From positions 66,588 to 130,587 of the forward strand of contig DOAO01000006.1 in assembly GCA_003504275.1 (NCBI GenBank): a DNA stretch of 64,000 nt, written 5' to 3'. The translations under genes and the position numbers were made by a program. Below are positions 3,028-54,346 of this stretch, in pieces (positions within the stretch are counted from its first letter, which is position 1; every line of letters starts with the position of its first letter). This DNA is from Patescibacteria group bacterium (GTDB taxonomy: Bacteria > Patescibacteriota > Minisyncoccia > Phycocordibacterales > UBA12445). The notes beneath the pieces are model-generated. The model was not told where the DNA came from. It saw only the letters and a list, made by a program, of their open reading frames with translations, and did no database searches.

Positions 3028-3255
3028 CTATTTTTCGGTCGTCCTCAATGGGTCTGAGAGATTGTCCAAGTGTGCCAACACAGCCCTTTTTTCTTTTTTT
3101 ACATAATCATCTTTATCAACTAACTTTTGAAACCAGCGATGAGTTGTTTGTTTGTTAAAACGCTGTCCTTTTATGGTTCTGACAAAATAAGCGTAAGAGC
3201 TCAAATTTGGATTTTTTTCTGCAATGTTATTGAATCTTCTTTGAAGTGATTTCAT
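3028..3255 (-). CDS. Small basic hypothetical protein (possible DNA-binding regulator of the element).
   Basis: 75-aa ORF immediately downstream of the primase on the same strand. No motif recognised. Confidence 0.35.
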   Translation of the reverse strand: MKSLQRRFNNIAEKNPNLSSYAYFVRTIKGQRFNKQTTHRWFQKLVDKDDYVKKEKRAVLAHLDNLSDPLRTTEK

Positions 3256-3281
3256 ATATTTGTAATTTATTGATGAGTAAT

Positions 3282-3668
3282 TTATTCGGAAGAATGGATA
3301 CGATTTTTTAACATTCTTAAGGCATCAAAATAAACTAAAGATTTTATTTCTAGTCTTCCATTCCAGTGGTCATCAATATCTTGTTCAATTCCGACCTCTC
3401 GTTTGAATATGAATAAAACTTTTCGCTGGTCTTGCTTATCTAAGGCGACTAGCTCAAACCCACGAGAAACTAACGAACTGCTCAAACCCAAATCTTGAGT
3501 CTGAAAATACTCTTTTGAGTTTTCCAAAGAGGTATATTCAAAATTATTTTTTTCTTTTTTTGTGTTTTGCATATAGTTTTGCTTAATAATTTGTAATATT
3601 GAGAGTGTTCCTGCTCTCAACCTATGTGCTGAAAAAACAGTGAAAAAGAAAAAACCGCTATATTTCAA
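3282..3668 (-). CDS. Hypothetical protein.
   Basis: 128-aa ORF. The true start may be an internal Met. No motif recognised. Confidence 0.4.
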   Translation of the reverse strand: MKYSGFFFFTVFSAHRLRAGTLSILQIIKQNYMQNTKKEKNNFEYTSLENSKEYFQTQDLGLSSSLVSRGFELVALDKQDQRKVLFIFKREVGIEQDIDDHWNGRLEIKSLVYFDALRMLKNRIHSSE

Positions 3669-3712
3669 GCAGTTTTTGTCTTTATTTGTCGCTGAAAACT
3701 TCAGTCAATCAA

Positions 3713-6196
3713 TCAAACTTCAGTGAGGTATTGCATTGCTCTCGTATCTTGGATTTCAAGATTTCTCAACTCTTTTTCTGGGGTGATTTTCAACAAAGGA
3801 TTGTATCCTCGCACTGTCTTATCAAAAGGTATTGGTTCTTCTGTTATTTCAAAATACTCACACAATGCTTTTGAGAGAGCTGACTTGTATGTTTGAAATA
3901 AACCTTTCTTTTCCTTGCTCCTTGAAAAAGCATTTTTACAGAAATTGAACATATTATCCGGGGTCAAATAAAAATCTGTATTGCCTTGTCTTTTAGTTTT
4001 AGTAAATGAGAGTGCTTGCAGTATTTTCCAAGAGACATTATCTGATTTTTTGAAGCCGAAGATTTCGTAATCTCCTTTGTTTTTTAGTTTTCCTTTTACA
4101 AGTATTTCAATGTTGTTGTCATCTGTGAACTTAATTTCAATATCGGACCAGCTCAATTTTGGTTTTTGAGCCGTATCGGCTTTATTGTTTTTGTGAAGAT
4201 TACTTTTCTTTACAGAAAACATCCTTTCTTTGTTTCTGTTTATGAGCTCTTGTTTTTCATCAGTTAGCTCAAAAGCTCTAGTGATGGTTTCTTTTGCTTT
4301 TTTCACATCTCCTTTTTCTTCATAAATCAAAGCAAGATTGTTCAATATTGAAGAACTCGTGTCCTCAATGCTCTCGTATACTTTTTGAGCTTCGTCCACT
4401 CTTTCTACCTCGTTGAGAGAGTAGGCAACCTCAAACCTTCTGTCAAAGAAAGTGTATCCGTCCTCAAGTTCTTCTGGTGCAAAGAAAAGCTCCAGCGTTT
4501 GGCCTTCAAGCAAGGAATAAATATCAGAGATTGTGTTGTGTTGTTTTTTCTTGAAAAGTTCTTCAATATCCTTGCTGAACATTTCCTTGAAATATCTTTC
4601 TGCCCGCACATCACGGCTTGGCGGTTTTGCTATTTCTTCTTTGATAGTTGTTGCGTAATTATACAAGAAATCGTCACTACATTCTGCAATGTCTGTATAA
4701 ATCCACTCCTTTCCTCCAGAGAGAACATATTTGAGCTTGTAGACAACGGCATTGTCATACTGTTTTATACGATAATACCCGTGAGCCAACAGATACAGGT
4801 CAAAGAGAGTTTCTTTTGTATTTTTCTTTATTTCGTTGAGTAGTCCTTCAATCTCTTTTTTGTTATTTTCTGACAATACAGTTTCGTCTTGGTAAAGAAA
4901 CTTCTTGAAAAGATAAATTGCCGTTAATTTCGTTTTATCGCTGATATTATTTTTGATTGCATACTGGATTTCATCAAGGAAGAATTGTTTTGTAGGTAGC
5001 TCCATTTGGAATACAAAATAATCATTCATTGATATGCTCTCAATTTGTTTACACATCTGGGATAGGGTGTTTTCTATGCCGACATCGTCCTTGAGTTTCA
5101 GATAGATAGAAAACATATAAATATGGCATCCCAAGAGCAATTCTGTGTCGCCGATATTTTCTATAGTTTCCTTGAAATATTTCAAACTCTCACTATATTT
5201 TTCTTGCTCGTAATAAAGAACGCCTCGCAAATATGAGTTGATGTTGTCGTTCAAATAGTTCCACGGAGTATGTATTTCTGGTTCGTTCTGTAGTATCTCC
5301 TTACACATATCAAACTGTTTGCTTTTCAAGAAAAAGACAAAAGATAGGCGAACAAAGTCGTTTGAGTAGATAGCTCTTTTTAATTCTTCATAGTTCTCCT
5401 TATAAAATTTTTTGAAGTTCTCAACCTCTTGATTATCTGATTTTGTGTAGTAATCAAAAGTTGCCCTGAGAGCTGGCTCGTATTTGGAGTTTTTAGTCAA
5501 AACTTTCTTTGCAAGATTGAACCTTTTGAGTAGACTGGTTTCTTTTTCAAAATAAAGCCCAATGTATTCTTGTTTTGCGAGCATCAAGTTTTCTGGCTTT
5601 TCGTCGTAAAGGTTTGAGAGTTTTCTGAGAGCAAATGACTTGTGCCAGTAGTTATCATCGTAGTTCGTGAGCGTATCATCAAGGTTATTTTTCATTAAAA
5701 TAAATAAAAGATTTCCTTCTATTTTTTGAGTTGAAACTTTGAGAAAATCTGAACCAGTCAAGAAACGTAAAATCTCTGATTGAGGAGATTGGATACTTTC
5801 AACATAGATATGAAATAGGGTTTCTTCGTAATCTTTTTTTATTTCTTCAATAGAAATTGTTTTTGTTTTTTGGATATGAAAATTACCGTTCAGTAGGTCC
5901 AGTGTTGTCATCGTGTGTGTGATTTCAAACTTGTTATTTTTATCTTTTTTATATTCTTGTTTTGTAACGTCTATGAGTAAATAATCTATATCATCTTTTC
6001 GGAGCTTCTCTATTTCTTTTTTGTCTAAGACTCCGATTCTTCCCAAGAAATCAATAGAAAACCAAAGCATGTTTTGGTCGTTTGAGAAATTTATTTCATC
6101 AAAGAATGATTTATCATCATTCTTGTCTATTGTTTTATCTACTGGTTTTATTTTGGGCATAGTGTAATTGTAATTTATCTTTAAGCATCCTAGCAT
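3713..6196 (-). CDS. Large alpha-helical TPR-like repeat protein of unknown function, divergent from the Type III R-M operon.
   Basis: 827-aa ORF with many TPR-like helical pairs (for example YYRIKQYDNAVVYKLKYVL, EEKGDVKKAKETITRAFEL). No catalytic motif seen. Confidence 0.65.
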   Translation of the reverse strand: MLGCLKINYNYTMPKIKPVDKTIDKNDDKSFFDEINFSNDQNMLWFSIDFLGRIGVLDKKEIEKLRKDDIDYLLIDVTKQEYKKDKNNKFEITHTMTTLDLLNGNFHIQKTKTISIEEIKKDYEETLFHIYVESIQSPQSEILRFLTGSDFLKVSTQKIEGNLLFILMKNNLDDTLTNYDDNYWHKSFALRKLSNLYDEKPENLMLAKQEYIGLYFEKETSLLKRFNLAKKVLTKNSKYEPALRATFDYYTKSDNQEVENFKKFYKENYEELKRAIYSNDFVRLSFVFFLKSKQFDMCKEILQNEPEIHTPWNYLNDNINSYLRGVLYYEQEKYSESLKYFKETIENIGDTELLLGCHIYMFSIYLKLKDDVGIENTLSQMCKQIESISMNDYFVFQMELPTKQFFLDEIQYAIKNNISDKTKLTAIYLFKKFLYQDETVLSENNKKEIEGLLNEIKKNTKETLFDLYLLAHGYYRIKQYDNAVVYKLKYVLSGGKEWIYTDIAECSDDFLYNYATTIKEEIAKPPSRDVRAERYFKEMFSKDIEELFKKKQHNTISDIYSLLEGQTLELFFAPEELEDGYTFFDRRFEVAYSLNEVERVDEAQKVYESIEDTSSSILNNLALIYEEKGDVKKAKETITRAFELTDEKQELINRNKERMFSVKKSNLHKNNKADTAQKPKLSWSDIEIKFTDDNNIEILVKGKLKNKGDYEIFGFKKSDNVSWKILQALSFTKTKRQGNTDFYLTPDNMFNFCKNAFSRSKEKKGLFQTYKSALSKALCEYFEITEEPIPFDKTVRGYNPLLKITPEKELRNLEIQDTRAMQYLTEV

Positions 6197-6289
6197 CTTT
6201 TACTATGAAAATTAAGTATTTTTTGTTACACTAGAACAGTCTTAAAAGACACACAATTTAGTTACCTAAGGTCTACTCAAAATAGATAC

Positions 6290-6443
6290 GGTACAAATAA
6301 ACCCCATCCCTGATACTGAACCCCGTGTTCAGCTACTCAGGGATGGGTCATTGTCGGGAAACTGATAATGGAGTCGCAAGGCTCAAGCTGGCACGGGGTT
6401 CTGTGCTTTCTCGGTCCAGCTTTATTAGACAAAACCCATCCCT
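6290..6443. other. GC-rich structured intergenic element with nested hairpins, flanked by the 12-nt direct repeats AAACCCCATCCC / AAAACCCATCCC. Candidate small ncRNA or MITE.
   Basis: CCATCCCTGA pairs with TCAGGGATGG. GAACCCCGTG pairs with CACGGGGTTC about 90 nt downstream. GC content is far above the surrounding AT-rich DNA. Confidence 0.4.
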
Positions 6444-11802: not shown

Positions 11803-11836
11803 CCAGAGTTGATATTTTATAGCTTCGGTTATAAAC

Positions 11837-11982
11837 GGGGGTTGTGAATTAAGTCCGTCATCCGCCTCGTGCGGTGGATTTGTCCGAAAGGGCAGAGGGT
11901 AGCGGTGAAAAGCGATAACTGGCTTACGGGTGTATCAAGAGTGTTACTCTGACAAAGAACTTCCATCTGTGGGAGTTTTTTG
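11837..11982 (+). ncRNA. Candidate structured small RNA: a GC-rich ~145-nt segment ending in a T-run. Identity is unknown; a weak resemblance to an SRP-RNA helix-8 core is not convincing.
   Basis: GC-rich island in AT-rich DNA. It contains GUCCGAAAGGGCAGAGG with a GNRA tetraloop and ends GGGAGTTTTTTG. No coding potential. Confidence 0.2.
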
Positions 11983-12089
11983 TTTTATAATTACTTTGTT
12001 TTATCCGCTTCATACTCTCGCATAATGTGCATTAAGTAATCACACTCCTTCGCAAATTGGTTCCAAAATTGGCACCCTAAGTCCACAAA

Positions 12090-12115
12090 CAAAATCCGCT
12101 TTAGCGGATTTTTTA
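12090..12115. terminator. Bidirectional rho-independent terminator hairpin.
   Basis: AAAATCCGCTTTAGCGGATTTTTT: a perfect stem flanked by an A-run and a T-run. Confidence 0.6.
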
Positions 12116-12374
12116 GTGGGCCGTAAGTAAGCAAACTTCTTTGCTTACGTCAGGACTCGAAAAGGCTCTCCCTTATTTCTGAAGATTTTTTAATCTGAAG
12201 AAATGGGAAGCCTATACCGTCCCCGTAGGGGAAGAGTCCTACCGTACAGGACTCGAAAGCCGCAGTCGGGCCCCTTGCTGAAAGCAAGGGAGACGAGGCG
12301 GGGTCGCGAGTACTTTGATTTATGTAAGGCGAAGCCGATACAGAAAGCTTAGTAACTCGTGACCGAGTCCTGTT
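12115..12374 (+). repeat. Two tandem copies, the first degenerate, of GC-rich repeat family A. The terminal inverted repeats are CAGGACTCG ... CGAGTCCTG and one end resembles a tRNA 3' end.
   Basis: The core GGGAGACGAGGCGGGGTCGCG matches GGGAGCTGAGGCGGGGTCGCG at 33640 and its reverse complement in the 51226-51770 array. AGTGGGCCGTAAG...CGTCAGGACTCGAA parallels the inverted tRNA-Ala 3' fragment at 33463. Confidence 0.6.
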
Positions 12375-20697: not shown

Positions 20698-20825
20698 GTC
20701 ATTGCGAAGCCGAAGGCTTGGCCGTCCACAGGTGTCGACGACGATTCCGTCGACCAATCCAGATTTATTTATGTTGAATTACTGGATTGCCACACCGAAG
20801 CTAAGACGCTTCGACTCGCAATGAC
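20698..20825. repeat. Family B MITE-like element with terminal inverted repeats GTCATTGCGA ... TCGCAATGAC and the internal inverted pair CAATCCAG / CTGGATTG.
   Basis: Same termini as the copies at 41289..41382 and 42503..42614. GC-rich. The overlapping ORF 20566..20874 is regarded as spurious. Confidence 0.7.
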
Positions 20826-29496: not shown

Positions 29497-31443
29497 TCAA
29501 AGAATACTTTCGGCATCTACTTTGACGGCAAAGCGGGGAGGCAATATTTTTAATATTTCAGGTAGAGACATTTTTTCAGGATCTTCACTGCCAGATGATT
29601 TTTCCGGCCAATTTACGGGATTAACTTTGATTAGGAGGTTCATTCTCGCTTTTCCTCCCGGAAGATTACTGGAGGATCGGAATTTTTCCGGATTCCATTT
29701 TTTTAGGAATATCGCAAGTTCATCAAATTCTTTTGTAACCACTTCTTCTTTTCCTTCGCCGGTTATCTTGATAAAAAGCCTGAAGGGCGGATAATTGAAA
29801 TTTTTTCGGAGTAGTATTTCCTCTTTGTAGAACTGAAGAGCATCACCCCTTACGATTTTTTCAAAGATCGGATTATCCGCACATCTAGTTTGAATAATAA
29901 AATTATTTTCCGCCATTAATTTTGCGCTTACTAGAAAGTTGAATACTCTTTCATTTATTTTGAAATCAGGCACAAAGAATAAACTGTCGGTGGATACTAT
30001 TGCGATATTTTCTATGGGTTTAGTTAAATAAAACAGTGCCATCTCTGTCCCAATCATCACAGAACCCTTATTCTCCTCGAAGCTAGTCATCATTTCTTTG
30101 CTTTGCCTGTGGGTTTTTACCGACTCCCCATCCATTCTTAAAATATTTGCATCTGGGAAATTATCTCTTAATTCATCTTCTACTCGTTCTGTGCCGAATC
30201 CGACCGGTCTTAGATTCCAGCTTCGGCATTTATTGCAAAGTACATTTGTATTTTGGCCTGTTCCGCATTTGTGACAGAAAAATACATTTGAACTGTCTCT
30301 TCGATGTAGAGTTGTTGTACTTCCACAATTTTTGCAGGATACGATTGTTTTACAGTCTCCACAGATAGTAGCGCTAGAAAGACCTTTTTTGGTGGTTAAT
30401 AGAAGAGTATTCTTTTTTGCTTCAATAGAGTTCCTTACAACATCTAGTAAATCTTCGGATATAGCTTTAGTGTCAAAATTATTTTTGTCTTTCTTTGTAT
30501 CTAATATTTTTGGTATCACTCTACTTATCAGGCGGTATTTAAAAAGTAAGGACGGGGAGTATTCATCTATTTCTTTTTTGTGCAGGGTTTCAAGACGAAG
30601 CACGGTGTCTCCTAAAATTAATCTAAGGGACAATTTTTTGGCTAACTTTTCTATAAATAATCTTGAGTCTATAAAAGGTCGAGAGAGAGTCTTGTGTGCA
30701 TTAGAGCTTTCTTTTTCTATAATAACTGTTTCAAAGCTATCGTCTAAAAAACACGAGAATATCGGCGTAGCAATAATGAGGAGTGGGTGAGATTTATCTC
30801 TGGCTGTCTGCCTTGCGTTCACTAATTTCTTCGGAGAGTCTTCGGGTCTTAATAGTAAGGTGTAATCTTCTATCCCTTTTTTAAGATTGTCCGCAAAAAC
30901 ATTTACTTCGTGCGTGGTCGGTAGACACAGGAAGACTGAAGACTTTCTGGCAAAATTTTCCCTTATAAGACTTTTATAAAAAGCGATTCTGTCTTCTATT
31001 GGAGCTTGGACGAGTTCCACGATATGTTTTTTTTCTTCGGCAATTTCTTTGACCGCAGTATCTTTTGCCTTTATTTTTACCTTTTGTATATTTTTCTCGT
31101 ATCCTTTAAAAAGATTGTTTGGTACATAGCAACTTATAACTTGGCCCAGATTAGTGCCAAAATAATCAGCCATCTCTTCAGCTGTCTCCATAAATTCTTT
31201 TGAAAAGAATTTTTCATCTCCGGCCTTGTCTATTTTTTTAAGCTCAAAGTCTGATCTTTTTATTTCTGTCTTTGCGTCTTTGATCGATCTTGTAGAAATA
31301 AGTATTGCGGGTATCCTTCTTTTCCTTATAGGCACAAAAACAAGCGAACCTGGTTCGATATCTTTCATTGTGAAATAGGAGAGTGATTCTTTGAAGATGG
31401 AATCTCCTATTGGTATAACTGTCGCCATTTTTATTTCGGCCAT
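29497..31443 (-). CDS. priA: Primosomal protein N' (PriA)-like. The Cys4-Cys4 zinc-binding region and C-terminus are conserved, but no recognisable Walker A motif is present.
   Basis: CGDCKTIVSCKNCGSTTTLH...FFCHKCG...CNKCRSW...GFGTERVEDEL. The GSGKT motif is absent. Sits in the priA-def-fmt operon context. Confidence 0.65.
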   Translation of the reverse strand: MAEIKMATVIPIGDSIFKESLSYFTMKDIEPGSLVFVPIRKRRIPAILISTRSIKDAKTEIKRSDFELKKIDKAGDEKFFSKEFMETAEEMADYFGTNLGQVISCYVPNNLFKGYEKNIQKVKIKAKDTAVKEIAEEKKHIVELVQAPIEDRIAFYKSLIRENFARKSSVFLCLPTTHEVNVFADNLKKGIEDYTLLLRPEDSPKKLVNARQTARDKSHPLLIIATPIFSCFLDDSFETVIIEKESSNAHKTLSRPFIDSRLFIEKLAKKLSLRLILGDTVLRLETLHKKEIDEYSPSLLFKYRLISRVIPKILDTKKDKNNFDTKAISEDLLDVVRNSIEAKKNTLLLTTKKGLSSATICGDCKTIVSCKNCGSTTTLHRRDSSNVFFCHKCGTGQNTNVLCNKCRSWNLRPVGFGTERVEDELRDNFPDANILRMDGESVKTHRQSKEMMTSFEENKGSVMIGTEMALFYLTKPIENIAIVSTDSLFFVPDFKINERVFNFLVSAKLMAENNFIIQTRCADNPIFEKIVRGDALQFYKEEILLRKNFNYPPFRLFIKITGEGKEEVVTKEFDELAIFLKKWNPEKFRSSSNLPGGKARMNLLIKVNPVNWPEKSSGSEDPEKMSLPEILKILPPRFAVKVDAESIL

Positions 31444-31516
31444 GCCCCTATTCTGTCAAAAAGGAACACAAGGGACACTATTGACCTGGTTAGATTTAAT
31501 ATGTTACTTTCTGTTG

Positions 31517-32755
31517 ATGGTAAGTCTTTCTAAGTCCAAAAAAGATAATAAAGAAAAGCCCCCAAAGAGGGTTTTTGTCGGAATGTCCGGAGGAGTAGAT
31601 TCTTCTGTGTCCGCAGCTCTTTTAAAAGAGGCTGGTTTCGAAGTGATAGGCGTTTTTATTAAAGTTTGGTCTCCTGACTGGCTTCCATGTGATTGGCGAG
31701 AAGAGAGACGTGATGCTATGAGATGTGCAGCTATACTTGAAATACCCCTACTTACTTTAAATTTAGAAAAAGAATACAAAGAGGAGGTTGTGGATTATAT
31801 GATTCGCGAATACAAGGCGGGTCGTGTTCCAAACCCGGATGTTATGTGTAATCGAACTGTTAAGTTTGGCGGTTTTTTTAAAGAAGCGATGAATATGGGA
31901 GCTGATTTTGTGGCGACCGGTCATTATGCGAGAACAAGGGGGGTTGATGGTAAAAGTATTGATAGTGCATCCTCCTTATCGTCATCCGCCCGGATGAATG
32001 CGTTCATCCATTCGGACGGGTTGCGAGGGCGAGGCGTCCTAGCCGAAGACCGTGGCAATCAAATTAAAAATTCAAAAGTTAAATACAATTTACTTGCAGG
32101 GGTTGATGGTAACAAAGACCAGTCATATTTCTTATGGACACTCAAGCAGGAGCAATTATCAAAAACACTATTTCCTGTCGGTCATTTTAAAAAAGAAGAA
32201 GTGAGAGTCGTTGCGGAGAAATTCGGACTTCCGACAGCAACAAAGAAAGATAGTCAGGGATTATGCTTCTTGGGAAAGATAGATGTTAAAGACTTTTTGA
32301 AAAGATATATAAATGTTAAAAGCGGGAAAGTTCTTAATGAAAAAGGGGAAACAGTAGGAGTGCATGACGGTGCCGTGCTATATGCGATAGGAGAGAGACA
32401 CGGTTTTTCTATTGAGAACAAAAAACCAGATGACGCACCTTATTATATTGTGGGTAAGGATATTAAGAAAAATACTTTAGTTGTTTCTAATAATAAGAGT
32501 TTTGGAAAGTCGGCTCAAAAAGAAATAGAAATAGGGGATTTGAATTGGATCAAAGGTGTCTCCCCTCTTAAAAATAAAAAATATTCAGCCAGGATCAGAT
32601 ATAGAGAAGAACTCAAGAATTGTAAAATAAAAAATATATCGCCTAAAAAGGCAACTATTGTTTTTGATGAACCAGAAGAATCCGTCTCGTTCGGGCAATC
32701 TCTCGTCCTTTATGACGGAGATGTGTGTCTCGGCGGGGGCGTAATAAATAAATAG
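31517..32755 (+). CDS. mnmA: tRNA 2-thiouridylase MnmA carrying a ~45-aa in-frame insertion. The ORF-track start 31391 overlaps priA and is probably an extension.
   Basis: PP-loop VFVGMSGGVDSS. ATGHYAR, DGKS, then extra residues before the conserved NKDQSYFLW. Confidence 0.85.
   Translation: MVSLSKSKKDNKEKPPKRVFVGMSGGVDSSVSAALLKEAGFEVIGVFIKVWSPDWLPCDWREERRDAMRCAAILEIPLLTLNLEKEYKEEVVDYMIREYKAGRVPNPDVMCNRTVKFGGFFKEAMNMGADFVATGHYARTRGVDGKSIDSASSLSSSARMNAFIHSDGLRGRGVLAEDRGNQIKNSKVKYNLLAGVDGNKDQSYFLWTLKQEQLSKTLFPVGHFKKEEVRVVAEKFGLPTATKKDSQGLCFLGKIDVKDFLKRYINVKSGKVLNEKGETVGVHDGAVLYAIGERHGFSIENKKPDDAPYYIVGKDIKKNTLVVSNNKSFGKSAQKEIEIGDLNWIKGVSPLKNKKYSARIRYREELKNCKIKNISPKKATIVFDEPEESVSFGQSLVLYDGDVCLGGGVINK
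31975..32060. repeat. GC-rich family B-related element fragment inserted in frame within mnmA.
   Basis: GCGAGGGCGAGGCGTCCTAGCCGAAGACCGTGGCAATC shares GAGGCGTCCTAGCCGA and GTGGCAATC with the element at 42503..42614. It shares GCGAGGGCGAGGCGTC, in reverse complement, with 41289..41382. It contains a GGATGAATGCGTTCATCC hairpin. Confidence 0.6.
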
Positions 32756-33349: not shown

Positions 33350-33422
33350 GGGCCGTTAGCTCACTTGGTAGAGCGCATCCATGGCATGGATGAGGTAGCA
33401 GGTTCGATCCCTGTACGGTCCA
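33350..33422 (+). tRNA. tRNA-Ala (anticodon GGC).
   Basis: Cloverleaf inferred by hand. Acceptor GGGCCGT/ACGGTCC with G3:U70, D-stem GCTC/GAGC, anticodon stem CATCC/GGATG with loop AUGGCAU, T-arm GCAGGTTCGATCCCTGT, discriminator A. CCA is not encoded. Confidence 0.8.
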
Positions 33423-33436
33423 CTGGTAAAAATATT

Positions 33437-33464
33437 AGCGCCCTAAAAGGCGCTTTTATTTTTT
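33437..33464 (+). terminator. Rho-independent terminator after the tRNA.
   Basis: AGCGCCCTAAAAGGCGCT hairpin followed by TTTATTTTTT. Confidence 0.7.
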
Positions 33465-33690
33465 CAGTGGACCGTAAGCAAAGCATTTTAAATGCTTTGC
33501 GTCAGGGATCGAAAAGCTTTTGAGCATTTTTTGGAGTGCTTTTGCACGAATAAAAAATCCAAAAGGTATACTGCCGCCGTAGGCGGAGATCCCTAAGATC
33601 GAAAGCCGGAAGCGGGACCCATTCTGTAAGAATGGGAGCTGAGGCGGGGTCGCGCAAAATTTTCGAAGAAAATTTATGCGTGACCGATCC
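33463..33690. repeat. Inverted fragment of the tRNA-Ala 3' end (with a hairpin insert), followed by a family A GC-rich repeat unit at about 33597-33690.
   Basis: AGTGGACCGTAAG[hairpin]CGTCAGGGATCGAA is the reverse complement of TTCGATCCCTG...ACGGTCCAC. The unit ATCGAAAGCCGGAAGCGGGACCCATTCTGTAAGAATGGGAGCTGAGGCGGGGTCGCG...GTGACCGATCC is repeated in reverse orientation in the 51226-51770 array. Confidence 0.65.
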
Positions 33691-33860
33691 CCATATGCCT
33701 CCACAAAATAATAGAACAACCGCACGGGGGTTGACCCCGTAGTAGAATTTTGGCTCAAAAAATATTTACAATATTTTTTATGATTACGGGGTAATCAAGC
33801 CGAAATTTCACTACGGGGTTGACTCATAAAAGGCTTTTTGTTAGTATGTCCTTCATGTTA

Positions 33861-41288: not shown

Positions 41289-41382
41289 TGTCATTGCGAA
41301 CGAAGTGAAGCAATCCAGATTGTGTTGTAAAAAAAGCTAGATTGCCACGTGCTTCGGCTAAGACGCCTCGCCCTCGCAATGA
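41289..41382. repeat. Family B MITE-like element (GTCATTGCGA ... TCGCAATGAC).
   Basis: GTCATTGCGAACGAAGTGAAGCAATCCAG...CTAGATTGCCACG...CCTCGCAATGAC. Confidence 0.7.
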
Positions 41383-42502: not shown

Positions 42503-42614
42503 GTCATTGCGAGATCGACGGAGATTAACGTCGACAGCCGATGGGGATTAACATCGGCACTTGTAGACAGCCCGTAGACGGCCGAGGCGTCCTAGCCGAG
42601 TTGTGGCAATCCAG
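42503..42614. repeat. Family B element half-copy (GTCATTGCGAG ... GTGGCAATCCAG).
   Basis: Shares the left terminus and the CAATCCAG with the other copies. Contains GAGGCGTCCTAGCCGAG, which is also found inside mnmA. Confidence 0.65.
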
Positions 42615-42695
42615 TTTTTAAAGTAATAATCATTTTGTTTTTATCACCATATGAAGTAAAATATCCTCATAGTCATTAGGAGAATATTTTTATAT

Positions 42696-50993: not shown

Positions 50994-51225
50994 ACCTCCT
51001 CAGTGAGTCTTGTTGTATGTTTTTGTTTTTGATGTTTGTTAAAGGTGCTCTTCTATAAGAATTTACATATTTTTTAATGATGTCCAAAACCCCCTCCTTT
51101 TTAATTATTTTGTTTTCAATGTTCCTTATGTTTTTAGACTATCATGTGTTAAAAATTTATGCTAGGAGGTAAAGTTTGGAGGGGAATTGGTCATGAGTAA
51201 ATTTGCTGACGCAAATTTTTGATAC

Positions 51226-51770
51226 GGGAAGAGAATCGATCACAACTCTTTTGCTTCGCAAAAGGTCGCAGCCCCGCCTCAGCTCCCATTCTTGCAGATA
51301 GCCGCGGGAGGAATCGGTCACAAACAAATCAGTTTGTGCCACGGAGAAGAATCGGTCACAGATATTTTGCTTCGCAAAATTCCGCGACCCTGCCTACCGG
51401 CAGGCAGGCCCGCCTCAGCTCCCGTTCTTGCAGAACGGGTCCCGCTTCCGGCTTTCGATTCTGATTTTTGCACTACAAAAATCATGTCGTAAGATTTAGC
51501 GCAACGAAGTTGTACTAAATTTACGACGCGTCCCGCTGGGCCGTGGGTATGTCGCGGGAGGTAATCGGTCACGAGTAGACTTGCTCCGCAAATCTCTCTC
51601 GGCCCCAGCTCAGCTCCCATTCAGCCGCGGGAGGAACCGGTCACAAGTTCCGCCTTTGGCGGACTCGCGACCCCAGCCTCGCATTCTGCTACGCAGAATA
51701 TGCTCCGGCTTTTCGATTCTCTCACGCAAGGTGTGCAGACACCTTGCTCCGCGGCACAAATTAAAAAACC
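51226..51770 (-). repeat. Array of four or more degenerate GC-rich family A repeat units adjacent to tRNA-Leu. The units end in tRNA-3'-end-like segments (GCCGCGGGAGGAATCGGTCAC versus the tRNA end GCCGCGGGAGAGAATCGAACTC).
   Basis: CGCAGCCCCGCCTCAGCTCCCATTCTTGCAGA is the reverse complement of the unit at 33620-33660. GGCTTTCGAT and AATCGGTCAC recur. The five overlapping ORFs predicted here in all frames are regarded as spurious. Confidence 0.65.
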
Positions 51771-51796
51771 CAGCAGAAGCTGGATTTTTTAATTTG

Positions 51797-51880
51797 TGCC
51801 GCGGGAGAGAATCGAACTCTCATGACCTTGCGATCGATAGATTTTGAGTCTATTGCGTCTACCAATTCCGCCACCGCGGC
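51797..51880 (-). tRNA. tRNA-Leu (anticodon CAA), class II with a 15-nt variable arm.
   Basis: Cloverleaf inferred by hand. GCCGCGG acceptor, GCGGAATTGGTAGACGC D-arm, anticodon loop CUCAAAA, T-arm GAGAGTTCGATTCTCTC. A bidirectional terminator hairpin CCAGCAGAAGCTGG lies downstream. Confidence 0.8.
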
Positions 51881-51884
51881 ATTT

Positions 51885-52121
51885 TTATGTTAAAGATTTT
51901 AAAAATTCCTTACCACATCCCGTCTTTAAATACTTCTCATGATTTCTTGCCTCTTGCCTTGTTATAAACTCTTTTGTGAATATTACCCTAAATGGTCGAT
52001 AACTTCTAGTGGTTTTTTCTTTGCCTGTGTTGTGCTGATCGAAACGCCTTTTTAAATTATTAGTAAGACCAACATAAATATAATTTTTACTTTCACTTTT
52101 AAGTGCATATATAAAAAACAT
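51885..52121 (-). CDS. Small GIY-YIG nuclease-family protein (UPF0213/YhbQ-like).
   Basis: YIYVGLTNNLKRRFDQHN matches the GIY-x10-YIG...R...H pattern. 78 aa. Confidence 0.75.
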   Translation of the reverse strand: MFFIYALKSESKNYIYVGLTNNLKRRFDQHNTGKEKTTRSYRPFRVIFTKEFITRQEARNHEKYLKTGCGKEFLKSLT

Positions 52122-52127
52122 AATTAT

Positions 52128-52183
52128 GAGTCTATTGCGCCTGTCTGCCGGTAGGCAGGTCTACCAATTCCGCCACCGCGGCA
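52128..52183 (-). pseudogene. Partial 5' duplicate of tRNA-Leu (positions 1 to ~35) carrying a 20-nt palindromic insert in the D-arm.
   Basis: TGCCGCGGTGGCGGAATTGGTAGAC[CTGCCTACCGGCAGACAGG]CGCAATAGACTC. The insert matches CCTGCCTACCGGCAGGCAGG at 51389-51411. Confidence 0.6.
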
Positions 52184-52243: not shown

Positions 52244-54346
52244 TTAAACTATTTTTAAATTTGGATACTTTTTTCTGAGTTCTTTTCCTTCGTTATAAGG
52301 GATTTGGTCGAGAAAAATATATCCACCCGCTGTTTCAGGTAGTTTCAACCCCTCAGAGGACTGGAGACTGCTAAGATTAAGATTACCACCCACTGTTTTA
52401 GGTAGCTTCAATCCTTCTGCTGATAGGAGATTGCTGAGATAAAGATTACCACCCACTGCTTCAGGTAGCTTTAACCCTTCGGCGGATTGGAGGCTACTGA
52501 GGTAAATATCACCATTTATTGTTTCTGTTAGTTTCAACCCTTCAGCGGATTCTAGACTACTGAGATTAAGATTACCGCCCACTGTTTCCGGTAGTTCCAA
52601 TCCTTCAGCGGATTCTAGACTACGGAGATCAAGAGATCCACCCACTGCTTCAGGTAACTTCAATCCTTCGGCGGATTGAAGATCGTTTAGATTAAGATTA
52701 CCACCCACTGTTTCCGGTAGTTCCAATCCTTCAGCGGATTCTAGACTACGGAGATCAAGAGATCCACCCACTGCTTCAGGTAACTTCAATCCTTCTGCTG
52801 ATAGGAGATTGCTGAGATAAAGATTACCACCCACTGCTTCAGGTAGCCTCAATCCTTCGGCAGATTTTAGACTACTGAGATCAAGGCTAGTACCCACTGC
52901 TTCAGGTAGCTTCAATCCTTCGGCAGATTTTAGACTACTGAGATCAAGGTGTTCGCCTATTTTTTCTGGAAGTTCCAATCCTTCTGCAAAACGGAGGCCA
53001 CGAAGAGACAACCCTCTACCGATTATTTTCGGTAATTTCAAATCTTTGGCAGATTCTAGCCCATCAAGACTAAGACTACCACTTATTCTTTCTATAAATT
53101 TCAATCTGTTAATCGACTCAATTTTATAAAGACGAAGACCGCCGTAATGAAACTTAATTCCTTCACACATAGCTTCCTTTTCTGTGCCTATACTAATTTC
53201 TTCTTCAAGATAACCGGTTATCGAAGAGAGGTCTGCTTTAATTTTCCTACCTTTCGTTATCTCCTCAGTCCTTGGATCTTCTCCATATCCAAACCCTTCA
53301 ATCCTTGAATCTAGCTGATACAAAAAGGTAAGATCGTCTTTCGTCAGTTCTTCTCCTTTTGCTTTTTTCTTGTCTATCTCGGTAAGCTTCTTCATATCTC
53401 TCTCTTTCTTTTCATACTTCGCGCCGTCGGGAAATTCCTTAAGCTTACTCTTTACAACCTCACCAATATATGGATCGAGATTTTGTTCTTTAGCGATACC
53501 TCTCACTTCTCCAATTTTTGAATCACTCATACGAATAGCAACCCTGGGGATAGTGGGCTTACCTTGTTTATCGTTGGAGTAATAGACATAGAAGTCTCCG
53601 CCTTCAAGTTGAATTTTGGCTGTTGATTCTCCTGCAGTACACCATCCGGTACCATGACCTTGGAGTGATTCTACGAGTGGCATGTGATCAGATTTCTGAG
53701 GATATTTAATCCACCTTCCTTCAGTGTTCAGTAATTCATTCTCTTCTGTCGGTGTTACTTTTTCGATAGCATAGGCGTAGAGTTTACCGAAGTTTGAACC
53801 TTCAAGAAGTTTCTTAAATTCAGGATTATTTTCTATGTCCGGTATTTCTTCATTACCGGCTTTTTTGACAATGGCATCTACTACATAGGCGAGTGCTTCG
53901 CGATTGAGATCGGGAAATGGAGCGACAGTACCTTTATCTCTCTTACCAAAGGCATGTTTCTCTTTGTCGAAGGTAGATAGCTTGAGCATATTATTAAATG
54001 CCCAGTATTTAGCCCACATAGGATAACTATCTGAATCAGGAGAGGAGAGGTAATTGACCCAATTGTCTAATGTAGAGTTTTGGTCATTGATGATTACTTC
54101 GCTCAGCTGTTCTTTTGTCTCGTCGGTAATCTCAATATCGCCGTGTCCTTGTTCACGAGCTAATCTTTTTTGATTGTCATAATAGCTTTCAGGAATGTCT
54201 TCTGGTTTAATGACATATTCTTTGTGATAATGTTCCTTGATTCTTTCTAATACTCTAGGGTCATCTCTATGTCCTGTGTGAGTTCTTTTGATGACTTCTA
54301 GGAAGTCAGAGATCTTGTCTATCGGTTTTTTGTGAGATTTCTTCAC
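52244..54346 (-). CDS. Leucine-rich-repeat protein with about 12 tandem 23-aa LRR units (L.L..L.SAEGLKLPEAVGG.L) in the C-terminal half and a unique N-terminal domain.
   Basis: The repeats are read directly from the translation. No signal peptide is obvious. Confidence 0.7.
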   Translation of the reverse strand: MKKSHKKPIDKISDFLEVIKRTHTGHRDDPRVLERIKEHYHKEYVIKPEDIPESYYDNQKRLAREQGHGDIEITDETKEQLSEVIINDQNSTLDNWVNYLSSPDSDSYPMWAKYWAFNNMLKLSTFDKEKHAFGKRDKGTVAPFPDLNREALAYVVDAIVKKAGNEEIPDIENNPEFKKLLEGSNFGKLYAYAIEKVTPTEENELLNTEGRWIKYPQKSDHMPLVESLQGHGTGWCTAGESTAKIQLEGGDFYVYYSNDKQGKPTIPRVAIRMSDSKIGEVRGIAKEQNLDPYIGEVVKSKLKEFPDGAKYEKKERDMKKLTEIDKKKAKGEELTKDDLTFLYQLDSRIEGFGYGEDPRTEEITKGRKIKADLSSITGYLEEEISIGTEKEAMCEGIKFHYGGLRLYKIESINRLKFIERISGSLSLDGLESAKDLKLPKIIGRGLSLRGLRFAEGLELPEKIGEHLDLSSLKSAEGLKLPEAVGTSLDLSSLKSAEGLRLPEAVGGNLYLSNLLSAEGLKLPEAVGGSLDLRSLESAEGLELPETVGGNLNLNDLQSAEGLKLPEAVGGSLDLRSLESAEGLELPETVGGNLNLSSLESAEGLKLTETINGDIYLSSLQSAEGLKLPEAVGGNLYLSNLLSAEGLKLPKTVGGNLNLSSLQSSEGLKLPETAGGYIFLDQIPYNEGKELRKKYPNLKIV
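52300..53010 (-). repeat. Tandem 69-bp repeats that encode the LRR units. They are not CRISPR.
   Basis: Near-identical 69-nt periodic units lie within the CDS, for example GATTACCACCCACTG(T/C)TTC(A/C)GGTAG(C/T)T(T/C)CAATCCTTC(A/G/T)GC(G/T)GAT. There are no separate spacers. Confidence 0.8.

Follow-up and report, generated by a model that had tools for sequence, protein, structure and literature searches.

GC-rich repeats beside tRNA genes are copies of an apparently undescribed non-coding RNA element widespread in Patescibacteria and Elusimicrobia

A conserved RNA element in the window and in two phyla

The GC-rich repeats in the 64-kb stretch of DNA analysed here (the window) are copies of an apparently undescribed, widespread non-coding RNA element. 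The body of each unit is a conserved three-way-junction RNA, encoded on the tRNA strand and showing strong covariation, and it lies between an antisense and a sense copy of the 3' part of a tRNA. It seems to us an evenly balanced question whether these are small (about 150-270 nt) elements that settle on the 3' side of tRNA and tmRNA genes as colonists, are co-transcribed with them and have their arms templated from the host tRNA.

The original prediction placed a unit of ~110-130 nt at 12247-12374 and 33597-33690, and at least four degenerate units in reverse orientation at 51226-51770. We built a covariance model, R1, from 70 homologous cores and scored every position of the window with it. 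The sequence statements of the original prediction all hold: both isolated units were recovered, and the reverse stretch resolved into two complete units, two truncated ones and one 15-nt fragment. The matches to R1 are:

12244-12373, plus strand: complete unit, copy A (86.7 bits, E=5e-23)
33590-33694, plus strand: complete unit, copy B (70 bits)
51345-51467, minus strand: complete unit, unit C (57.7 bits)
51630-51725, minus strand: complete unit, unit D (54.7 bits)
51229-51297, minus strand: 5'-truncated unit, unit F (16.6 bits)
51568-51606, minus strand: fragment, part of unit E

By this model the window holds four complete units, and beyond those listed there is no R1 match below E=0.7 in the whole 64 kb. 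The strict search pattern is expected to give 0 matches in a shuffled window, and the RNA folds of the three window loci have z-scores of -6.6 to -8.0. Unit C is 94% identical to copy B over 51 nt (inverted repeat I1). Five overlapping ORFs of 61-100 aa lie in different frames at the array and, as had been suspected, the repeats are non-coding.

At the Rfam 15 gathering threshold no family overlapped the units at the three window loci, and permissive searches (E up to 10; E up to 1) returned only spurious microRNA or sRNA matches on the tip hairpin. The families covered include hammerhead, twister, twister-sister, pistol, hatchet, HDV-like ribozymes and group I/II introns, as well as ROOL, GOLLD, tmRNA and YrlA. 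ARAGORN and the Rfam tRNA model detected only two genuine tRNAs, and no unit. In the full-text literature on tRNA-flank RNAs of Patescibacteria and Elusimicrobia we did not find the element described; the nearest paper (PMC13011429) deals with group I introns inside Patescibacteria tRNA genes, and repeats, T-loop, duplication and GIY-YIG are all absent from its text.

We then looked for the element elsewhere, scanning one genome per species with the pattern and then with R1. The model matches 107 + 32 = 139 copies at about 105 loci. The original prediction had named as refutations a lack of copies elsewhere and membership of a known RNA family; these copies, and the empty Rfam search, speak for it on both counts. 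All classified copies come from Patescibacteria or Elusimicrobia, and the core is nearly identical in the second phylum. No true copy was found in 2.9 million viral contigs: the single pattern match there is a chance one, lying in GC-rich DNA away from any tRNA, and R1 does not recover it. Matches in Neorhizobium, Cryobacterium and Nitrospirae, and similar GC-rich ones, were also due to chance in the pattern and are not recovered by the model.

One complete unit is present in 57 of 71 loci, and orphan copies, fragments and arrays all occur. One Saccharibacteria genome carries the element at tRNAs whose orthologues in others are empty, and at one locus (L102) 4/4 tRNAs are occupied. A fixed repeat boundary in the branch-hairpin loop, suggested by loci L063 and L107, did not hold as a rule, for the sequences of L038 and L068 go on as units that are diverged or lack a core.

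A three-way junction with independent covariation

The core, of ~90-110 nt, is made of the junction AAAG, a stem P4 with a GGA/GAG internal loop, a GG(G) linker and a stem P5 with a G.U pair conserved in 70/70 sequences. In the 70-sequence alignment, paired cells amount to 91.5%, versus 34-42% when the partners are slid, and double-sided changes number 368 versus 124 in shuffles. Variant cores flip the P4a stem from GCC/GGC to GGC/GCC, GAC/GUC or CCC/GGG, and P5 flips too. Many invariant columns of the first alignment had been fixed by the search pattern; junction and internal-loop residues are still conserved in 20 matches outside that pattern, and the unpaired junction nucleotides are highly conserved across the two phyla.

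The outer termini of copy A, CAGGACTCG/CGAGTCCTG, are as originally described and correspond to the closing helix, P1. Since both arms of P1 come from one tRNA, its "covariation" is automatic and is, alone, no proof of selection for pairing. The covariation of P4 and P5 is independent of any tRNA sequence.

Arms that match the neighbouring tRNA

The predicted tie to tRNA genes holds well beyond the window: 84/100 copies examined have a same-strand tRNA or tmRNA at most 500 nt upstream, and for 76/100 it lies 13-78 nt upstream. The unit ends are indeed copies of tRNA 3' halves, and in other genomes the hosts extend to 18 tRNA amino-acid identities and tmRNA. Elements also occur inside a tRNA operon, ordered Cys-E-Leu-E-Lys-Leu (E being the element), with 5-50-nt spacers and no terminators.

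Arm A, upstream of the core, is an antisense copy of tRNA positions 56-73 plus trailer, in many cases split by a conserved branch hairpin at the 65/66 junction. Arm S2, downstream, is a sense copy of positions 56-73 that usually has CA or CCA added to it. The part copied comprises the 3' side of the T-loop, the 3' strand of the T-stem and the 3' strand of the acceptor, and the resulting direct repeat is 18-60 nt long and tRNA-specific. S2 matches the tRNA at 17/18 positions or more in 31/82 copies; its conservation drops beyond the P1 part, and about half of the copies have a diverged acceptor part. Pairing between the guide and the adjoining tRNA covers 10.1/12 positions, compared with 8.6/12 for the tRNAs of other loci (maximum of 1000 permutations, 9.13), and an exact 8-nt anti-acceptor is present in 17/77 loci versus 0 expected. 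As an example, the tRNA-Leu of locus L084 has the T-loop TTCAAGT; the guide of its element reads ...GGACTTG and its S2 starts with CAA, so that both arms match the local variant. Within a genome, cores at different tRNAs are nearly identical and the arms differ (copy B and unit C in the window; L030; L084/L049).

In 78/79 loci, the segment running from C56 to the guide is closed by folding, and at least 17/18 tRNA positions are paired in 42 loci. The pairs of this rod are 97% Watson-Crick, and many rods carry a terminator-like tip and a U-run. In several loci a UAAU mini-hairpin is inserted at the seam after A58.

The original prediction had offered a tRNA-derived SINE or a MITE; a retrotransposon or a DNA transposase would have moved such an element in trans. 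Small, non-coding, repeated copies, truncated in some cases, are what such a source would leave, and an inverted repeat does exist (the S1:A rod, S1 being the 3' half of the tRNA itself), yet we give this origin almost no credence. The unit body is a separately conserved junction RNA with its own covariation and not tRNA-derived, and therefore a "tRNA-derived SINE" is a misfit: the core is not tRNA-like, and ARAGORN and the Rfam tRNA model match genuine tRNAs only. Such a SINE has a whole-tRNA 5' head with cloverleaf and internal promoter boxes, a LINE-shared or A-rich tail and frequent 5' truncation, whereas the element has just the 18-20 nt of a tRNA 3' end, at its own 3' end, lacks an A-rich or LINE-like tail, and shows 73 5' motifs versus 75 3' motifs in 71 loci. 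"MITE" fits no better, because constant terminal inverted repeats are absent. A MITE combines them with a short target-site duplication, whereas the inverted arms of the element change with each tRNA, one arm being the tRNA gene itself, and no short constant target duplication accompanies the long direct repeat.

Two predicted, mutually exclusive folds and a possible host switch

The element, read from the same strand as the tRNA, would belong to the tRNA precursor, where two folds could compete. In the first, A:S2 would close the junction as helix P1 and give a mimic of the tRNA top half. In the second, exclusive of A:S2, A and the genuine tRNA 3' half would form a near-perfect rod of 30-40 bp with the terminator-like hairpin at its tip. 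When the whole transcript from tRNA to S2 is folded at minimum energy, positions 56-73 of the tRNA pair with the leader in 63/72 loci, and the rod is favoured over tRNA and element folded apart by a mean of 10.7 kcal/mol, in an energy model that omits tRNA tertiary structure, base modifications and co-transcriptional folding.

The modelled first fold recalls known tRNA-like structures (the tRNA-like domain of tmRNA, viral 3' ends and the 3' ends of Neurospora retroplasmids): A:S2 would supply an acceptor-like and T-stem-like helix, with one hairpin where a tRNA has its D and anticodon arms, and a minority of copies have NCCA ends. The element differs from them in that it has no T-loop and its helix continues into the junction; in its mimics of tRNA-Ala, G3.U70 is mostly replaced by A-U.

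The main rival to a colonising element starts from these two pairings, and we regard it as possible though rather unlikely. According to it, the element is a cis-acting RNA switch or processing module of the host for tRNA maturation, with the junction as a putative aptamer or protein platform. A stable P1 would leave the tRNA 3' half free to mature; otherwise A would invade the acceptor and T stems and sequester them in the rod, the tRNA copy merely supplying P1. Several observations favour such a module. Both pairings are real in the computed folds, and the rod is usually preferred there; the guide keeps its complementarity to the tRNA where S2 has diverged past its first ~7 nt (32 loci versus 7), and S2 conservation falls after the P1 part. 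The conserved unpaired nucleotides of the junction, the position inside tRNA operons and the high occupancy in very small genomes point the same way, and rod G.U pairs are slightly commoner on the sense strand (93 versus 60). Against the switch, orthologous tRNAs of related genomes differ in presence or absence, and arrays, truncated units and tRNA-less orphans resemble selfish or duplicative DNA. In many rods the tip and U-run would stop transcription before A, and such a high share of Watson-Crick pairs looks more like recently templated DNA than like a long-selected helix. The simplifications of the energy model also weigh against it.

Riboswitches and attenuators are among the closest known systems. 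The element would share with them a compact junction, invariant unpaired nucleotides and a P1 that competes with an exclusive alternative helix. Riboswitches, however, sit in mRNA leaders, while the element lies 3' of a tRNA and has no consistent downstream gene; its competing helix would sequester the acceptor and T strands of the tRNA; its copies come and go between related genomes; and no ligand or protein partner is known.

Copies A and B and their neighbours

The two plus-strand copies are laid out as follows:

12091-12372, plus strand: copy A, an orphan with no tRNA upstream (fold z=-8.0; R1 86.7 bits)
12091-12114, plus strand: tip hairpin of copy A
12115-12124, plus strand: anti-acceptor-like segment
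12125-12150, plus strand: branch hairpin
12151-12246, plus strand: extra domain
12247-12363, plus strand: core
12364-12372, plus strand: 3' strand of P1
33350-33423, plus strand: tRNA-Ala(ggc), host of copy B
33405-33714, plus strand: copy B, downstream of tRNA-Ala(ggc) (fold z=-6.65; R1 70 bits)
33405-33422, plus strand: S1 of copy B
33423-33467, plus strand: rod tip
33468-33475, plus strand: anti-acceptor
33476-33502, plus strand: branch hairpin
33503-33596, plus strand: lineage-specific extra junction domain
33597-33684, plus strand: core
33685-33714, plus strand: diverged S2 and trailer copy

Copy B has tRNA-Ala on one side and rpsP on the other. A widespread second family had been considered for the extra junction domain seen in copies A and B; among the loci compared the domain occurs only in this genome. 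No integrase or cargo is adjacent to the window copies; the genes around them are rpsP and those for a KH-domain protein, a protease and a GIY-YIG protein. In other samples, contigs with the same flanking proteins (KH-domain and GIY-YIG) match the window exactly at both loci; none of them has an empty or variant site, and one scaffold differs solely at N-filled gaps.

A decayed array downstream of tRNA-Leu

The array occupies 51220-51796, directly abutting tRNA-Leu(caa), with all its units on the minus strand: two complete, two 5'-truncated and the 15-nt fragment. Every one ends with a copy of the tRNA-Leu 3' part (CGGTTCCTCCCGCGGC, CGATTACCTCCCGCGAC, CGATTCTTCTCCGTGGCACAAAC, CGATTCCTCCCGCGGC, CGATTCTCTTCCCGTATCA; the tRNA's own 3' part is CGATTCTCTCCCGCGGCA). 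From the tRNA outwards, its features are:

51796-51880, minus strand: tRNA-Leu(caa), host gene of the array (ARAGORN; Rfam tRNA 60.1 bits)
51797-51814, minus strand: S1, the tRNA-Leu 3' half, C56-A73 (from sequence coordinates)
51749-51804, minus strand: rod, a palindrome with 26-nt arms (inverted repeat I13, 96% complementary; fold)
51749-51756, minus strand: anti-acceptor of the rod (from sequence coordinates)
51724-51748, minus strand: branch hairpin (AGC-stem-loop-stem-GCGU) between anti-acceptor and guide (from sequence)
51624-51723, minus strand: unit D, complete (R1 match)
51714-51723, minus strand: guide of unit D, perfect complement of tRNA-Leu 56-65
51640-51713, minus strand: core of unit D (from sequence coordinates)
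51624-51639, minus strand: S2 copy of unit D (from sequence coordinates)
51551-51623, minus strand: unit E, 5'-truncated, beginning in the P4 loop, P5 intact (R1 fragment; repeat D5)
51551-51567, minus strand: tRNA-3'-half copy of unit E (from sequence coordinates)
51462-51550, minus strand: spacer that separates unit E from unit C and contains two AT-rich hairpins (sequence; fold)
51332-51461, minus strand: unit C, complete (R1 match; 94% identity to copy B)
51456-51461, minus strand: short guide of unit C
51355-51455, minus strand: core of unit C, with a 20-nt palindromic insertion at 51389-51408
51332-51354, minus strand: S2 and trailer copy of unit C
51301-51331, minus strand: unit G, a 15-nt core 3' fragment (...TTGTGAC) plus a tRNA-3'-half copy (from sequence)
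51301-51316, minus strand: tRNA-3'-half copy of unit G
51220-51300, minus strand: unit F, 5'-truncated, beginning in the P4 loop (R1 16.6 bits)
51220-51238, minus strand: tRNA-Leu 3'-half copy of unit F, the most distal of the array, with several mismatches to the tRNA

The rod of tRNA-Leu is made of the acceptor 3' strand, the trailer and a terminator-like tip hairpin, paired with anti-trailer and anti-acceptor; the branch hairpin next to it is a conserved leader module at many loci. The guide of unit D pairs with the tRNA at 11/12 positions, and in the minimum-energy fold the distal copy of unit F pairs with that same guide. We read the array as decayed, given the truncated units that it contains. 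Short contigs of this population terminate inside it, so that the assembly breaks there.

In this array, the truncated units pass straight into tRNA-like 3' ends, which would suit an "optional intron" or ribozyme-type element running from C56 of the tRNA to the GUGAC end of the core and carrying its own copy of the tRNA 3' exon. The host tRNA would then work with or without removal of the element. We find such an intron improbable, and have as little confidence in its putative chemistry, in which the core would catalyse or recruit cleavage and ligation at U55|C56 and GUGAC|C56'; circular or unit-length RNA able to re-insert into T-loops could result. Its appeal lies in the equivalence of the two junctions: S1 and S2 both begin with C56 and both pair with one guide beside the junction, and the segment C56...GUGAC would fold into a rod and junction, closed so that its 5' end meets its 3' end. 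The seam after A58 is discrete and accepts the mini-hairpin, and S2 has CCA where the tRNA gene lacks it in 5/29 copies counted, plus others seen by eye, as fits an RNA intermediate. These CCA cases are nevertheless a minority, with one extra C relative to the gene, and no self-cleaving ribozyme or intron of Rfam matches even at E up to 10. Priming or copying from a mature tRNA was rejected for the antisense arm, since this arm corresponds to the genomic trailer instead of CCA; the arms were thus not copied from mature tRNA, which argues against the intron.

Two further groups of described RNAs and elements resemble the element in part. HDV-like "theta" ribozymes, which are placed directly downstream of tRNA genes, and ROOL/GOLLD, often found beside them, are structured non-coding RNAs in the same orientation as the tRNA and possibly processed with its precursor. 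Compared as Rfam models only, they have no sequence or structure match to the element and, unlike it, none is known to use copies of a nearby tRNA to make a helix. Class C group II introns and IS200/IS605 elements, whose insertion is guided by base pairing beside hairpins or terminators, share with it a position after a terminator-like hairpin and a guide-like segment complementary to the upstream sequence; the element, in contrast, has no domain V, six-domain structure, ORF or constant ends, and its "guide", of 18-40 nt, is different for every tRNA.

The second origin offered by the original prediction, att-site scars, survives only in part. Integrase islands or prophages at tRNA genes would leave duplicated 3' ends passively, and many tRNA-targeting integrases do generate direct repeats from the T-loop to the tRNA 3' end. 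The direct repeats of the element have this same extent, tmRNA genes are targeted too, and locus L083 has, downstream of tmRNA, two copies with a one-gene insert between them. The resemblance to tyrosine-integrase islands and prophages includes a direct repeat that extends from the T-loop and rebuilds the 3' end, and successive events that can build tandem arrays. We nonetheless consider passive scars very improbable. A conserved structured core lies between the repeats at about 105 loci in two phyla, and the antisense copy of the tRNA 3' half is left unexplained. Unlike an island, the insert is 150-270 nt long, encodes nothing, is a structured RNA and carries the antisense 3' half and trailer; elements consistently stand alone, with no integrase nearby, no cargo next to the window copies and no true match among the viral contigs.

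A possible colonising element or host module

For a colonising element, the fold and strand of the RNA, its association with tRNAs, the match of arms to local tRNAs, its place in operons and its presence or absence between species are direct observations. From these we infer that the core moves between tRNA loci, that on copying the arms would be templated from the local tRNA, and that the RNA itself may play a role. Repeated insertion, duplication and decay would then produce arrays such as 51220-51796. We know of no mechanism for an insertion flanked by an inverted and a direct copy of its target, and no linkage of the copies to a nearby transposase, integrase or reverse transcriptase was seen.

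Several results weaken this reading. Copies truncated at the 5' end are not generally in excess, a LINE-like signature being confined to a few arrays, and polymorphism within the population was not seen among the sampled contigs. Near-identity of cores within a genome could stem from gene conversion and not from recent spread. High occupancy in streamlined genomes and the keeping of the guide while S2 diverges fit a host-selected function at least as well as a colonising element.

Implications

Tentatively, we suggest a new class of RNA element on tRNA genes, one whose conserved junction RNA docks on the T-arm and acceptor 3' strand of the host tRNA and builds with it, copies that strand in both orientations on spreading and toggles between sequestration of the tRNA 3' half and mimicry of a top half. 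It would be either a self-propagating parasite of tRNA precursors, of ribozyme or retro type, or an RNA switch.

Some consequences are practical: the elements break assemblies and create spurious ORFs, and their partial tRNA copies could confuse tRNA annotation. For the organisms, genomes of Patescibacteria (Candidate Phyla Radiation) measure only ~1 Mb, yet up to all the tRNAs of a locus carry the element. Either outcome would be new. If mobile, the element would be a parasite that recognises and copies its target by pairing with the tRNA 3' half, by a mechanism open in principle to re-targeting. As a host module it would couple an RNA sensor to the folding of tRNA and tmRNA, and it would be the first RNA switch to gate the maturation of both genome-wide in Patescibacteria and Elusimicrobia.

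Repeat units in the window

The flagged region is on the minus strand, directly 3' of tRNA-Leu(caa) (51796-51880), in a window that is AT-rich (GC ~37%) and typical of Patescibacteria in its gene content; contigs identical to it come from groundwater metagenomes. A covariance model built from homologues, run over the whole 64 kb with speed filters off, identified four complete units, one truncated unit and one fragment, with no further noteworthy match elsewhere in the window. Together with a parse by hand of 51220-51796, this search confirmed the repeat array of the original prediction.

Units in the window
12244-12373, +: copy A, covariance-model match
33590-33694, +: copy B, covariance-model match, just 3' of tRNA-Ala(ggc) 33350-33423
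51220-51796, -: array; order from the gene: tRNA-Leu; palindrome with 26-nt arms that include the acceptor 3' strand of tRNA-Leu; branch hairpin; unit D, complete; unit E, 5'-truncated; spacer; unit C, complete, with a 20-nt palindromic insertion inside; unit G, 15-nt fragment; unit F, 5'-truncated

At its 3' end, each array unit carries a copy of the 3' half of tRNA-Leu. All five overlapping ORFs reported over the array exist and are artefacts of GC-rich non-coding DNA. Upstream of copy A, a GC-richer segment (11826-11985, +) with moderate structure (z=-3.2), a terminator-like hairpin at its end and no Rfam match may be an unannotated small RNA.

A conserved three-way junction

Scanning one genome per species with a degenerate pattern derived from the window copies yielded at least 119 loci, from which 70 cores were aligned. 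The alignment fits a three-way junction of three helices: the closing helix P1, P4 (in two parts and with a GGA/GAG internal loop) and P5. In it, 91.5% of paired cells are filled by pairs (34-42% with slid partners), double-sided changes number 368 (124 in shuffles), and the covariation score is 0.47 (vs 0.15). P4b and P5 covary freely and P5 holds a G.U pair in 70/70 sequences, which points to an RNA made from the tRNA strand. Since many columns are fixed by the scan pattern, we inspected model matches that the pattern had missed; these keep the internal-loop and linker residues and show compensatory flips in P4a and P5. A comparison with Rfam 15 for known ribozymes or ncRNAs gave no family match even with E-values as high as 10 allowed, and it covered all self-cleaving ribozymes, introns, ROOL, GOLLD, tmRNA and YrlA. 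An intron- or ribozyme-like variant, in which the moving part would be the unit C56...GUGAC, is an improbable reading.

Association with tRNA genes

Among the matches listed, the model finds 107 copies in loci L001-L100 and 32 in L101-L119, and these 139 copies establish that the unit is repeated elsewhere. Classified hosts among these matches are all Patescibacteria (Saccharibacteria, Paceibacteria, Parcubacteria, Moranbacteria and others) or Elusimicrobia, the remainder comprising unclassified MAGs and a single MAG with the label Nanoarchaeia. The pattern also matched GC-rich genomes of Proteobacteria, Actinobacteria and Nitrospirae by chance; the model rejects these matches, as it does the sole pattern match in 2.9 million viral contigs, which sits in GC-rich DNA lacking a neighbouring tRNA.

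A same-strand tRNA or tmRNA lies within 500 nt upstream of 84 of the 100 copies examined, and in 76 its end falls 13-78 nt before the model match. The neighbours cover 18 tRNA amino-acid identities plus tmRNA. Given that tRNA flanks make up only ~0.2% of such genomes by our own estimate, this association is not a chance one. Orphans with a long P1-type helix occur away from tRNAs (copy A and locus L103). Occupancy reaches 4/4 tRNAs in one locus (L102). In an operon of the order Cys-E-Leu-E-Lys-Leu (E being the element), spacers measure 5-50 nt and no terminators are found, so that, judging from this arrangement, the elements must be co-transcribed with the tRNAs.

Both arms follow the neighbouring tRNA

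The sense copy S2 (P1's 3' strand together with what follows it) reproduces the adjoining tRNA from C56 on, with at least 17 of 18 positions (56-73) identical in 31/82 copies, bearing out the proposed resemblance of unit ends to tRNA 3' halves. The repeat mostly reaches N73 plus CA; S2 reads CCA in 5/29 cases with no gene-encoded CCA, and more were noticed by eye. The guide, which forms the 5' strand of P1, is complementary to this same tRNA segment; it pairs with the adjoining tRNA at 10.1/12 positions vs 8.6 with tRNAs of other loci (permutation maximum 9.13, n=1000). In many leaders the guide is preceded by a conserved branch hairpin, and this in turn by the complement of the acceptor 3' strand (exact 8-mer in 17/77 loci, none expected), which mostly extends into the complement of the trailer. 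Folded from C56 to the guide end, 78/79 loci give a closed rod, i.e. a helix between the genuine tRNA 3' half and the antisense arm; at least 17/18 tRNA positions are paired in 42 loci, and 97% of all rod pairs are Watson-Crick.

Both arms also follow local tRNA oddities. For instance, a tRNA-Leu (L084) with the unusual T-loop TTCAAGT is accompanied by a guide ending in GGACTTG and an S2 starting with CAA. In 3 of 4 tRNA-Ala cases the antisense arm has an A opposite U70 rather than the tRNA's own G3, showing that it complements the 3' strand and does not copy the 5' strand. The antisense arm matches the genomic trailer and not CCA, which rules out mature tRNA as its source.

Two side observations concern these arms. 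A mini-hairpin with a UAAU loop (e.g. CGUG-UAAU-CACG) is inserted in S2 of L016, L017, L036, L049 and L084, after A58 in most of them and one nucleotide further in L036; it gives P1 the form of a four-way junction and reveals a discrete seam within the element. At L101:2821-3260, the whole T-arm and 3' end of tRNA-Pro occur a second time behind the gene, and another 150 nt on comes an element with a third 3'-end copy plus 12 trailer nucleotides: inserts of more than one kind duplicate tRNA 3' halves in such genomes.

Two predicted, exclusive folds

Two mutually exclusive folds are predicted. Pairing of the antisense arm with S2 would close the junction into a mimic of the tRNA top half, with an acceptor-like helix, a single hairpin replacing the D and anticodon arms, and a T-stem continuing into P1; alternatively, the 3' half of the tRNA itself would be the partner of the antisense arm. 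When whole tRNA-to-S2 transcripts are folded by the nearest-neighbour method, the rod is favoured in 63/72 loci, by 10.7 kcal/mol on average, energies that leave out tRNA tertiary structure, modifications and folding order and thus make a competition of folds plausible rather than predict its outcome. In 32 loci the tRNA is a better pairing partner for the guide than the element's own S2, and in 7 a poorer one; the UAAU mini-hairpin after A58 of S2 in several loci accounts for part of this gap. The main rival to an element that colonises tRNA flanks would be a host module, a switch or a processing device, whose junction determines if the antisense arm releases or sequesters the tRNA 3' half; we consider it possible but doubtful, and it is compatible with such an element.

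Other repeats and genes nearby

A 20-nt GC-rich palindrome, CCTGYCTNNCGNNAGRCAGG, is inserted within RNA-gene contexts.

Sites of CCTGYCTNNCGNNAGRCAGG
51389-51408, window: in core C
52140-52159, window: D-loop of a partial tRNA-Leu copy
L068:5781; L085:5937 and 5983; L093:7484

In these three other Patescibacteria genomes it occupies a branch-hairpin loop, a P5 loop and copies of S2. It has the appearance of a very small mobile hairpin and recalls yeast mitochondrial GC clusters. Within 51885-52182(-), a 78-aa GIY-YIG ORF (51885-52121, -; PF01541) lies between the intact tRNA-Leu and a partial duplicate of its 5' half (52127-52182) that stops in the anticodon loop, which suggests a homing-endonuclease-type insertion there, with the gene regenerated. 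At least 10 tandem 63-nt repeats (52247-53113) inside ORF 52244-54346(-) encode 21-aa repeats (…LxSAEGLKLPEAVGGxLxL…) of a 700-aa protein with no Pfam match recorded. A LOOT RNA (RF03000) is found at 6263-6384(+), at 53.1 bits (gathering threshold 46.4). Copies of a further GC-rich repeat family (…CATTGCGAGGGCGAGGCGTCCTAGCCGAAG…GTGGCAATC…) are present in both orientations (20774-20813, 32021-32060, 41340-41379, 42583-42622), one copy within the mnmA-like ORF 31391-32755.

Mobility and origin

Cores at different tRNAs of one genome are near-identical while their arms differ (copies B and C: 94% over 51 nt; likewise in L030 and L084/L049), which we count for mobility, although gene conversion could also cause it. 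Arrays and fragments, such as those of the window, count the same way, as do the orphans away from tRNAs, with their long helix of antisense arm and S2. Also in favour, one Saccharibacteria genome carries the element at tRNAs whose orthologues in others lack it, the difference being the element plus a 20-21-nt repeat. Against mobility, or neutral, are the single unit of most loci, truncation without overall bias, no polymorphism seen within the window's population, and no enzyme linked to the copies.

The original prediction, SINE/MITE-like elements or att-site scars, is supported in part: it holds as to non-coding DNA and tRNA 3'-end copies. Plain att scars would account for the direct repeat and a SINE or MITE for small size, but for nothing else; we regard the former as quite improbable and the latter as scarcely credible. 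As a separate observation, L083:2044-4545 has the order smpB, tmRNA, element, a 329-aa ORF (3251-4240, hypothetical protein) and a tmRNA 3'-end remnant with a second, nearly identical element; this repeat of tmRNA end plus element may be an attachment site for other inserts.

At roughly even confidence, we favour a co-transcribed structured-RNA element that colonises tRNA flanks. It would settle at the tRNA 3' flank, both arms would be templated from the host tRNA, and repeated insertion, duplication and decay would have produced the array. The element is described neither in Rfam 15 nor in the searchable literature, and we know of none whose closing helix is formed by an inverted and a direct copy of the neighbouring tRNA; we therefore rate it categorically new. 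Once an enzyme is found, it may prove to be an unusual variant of site-specific mobile element.
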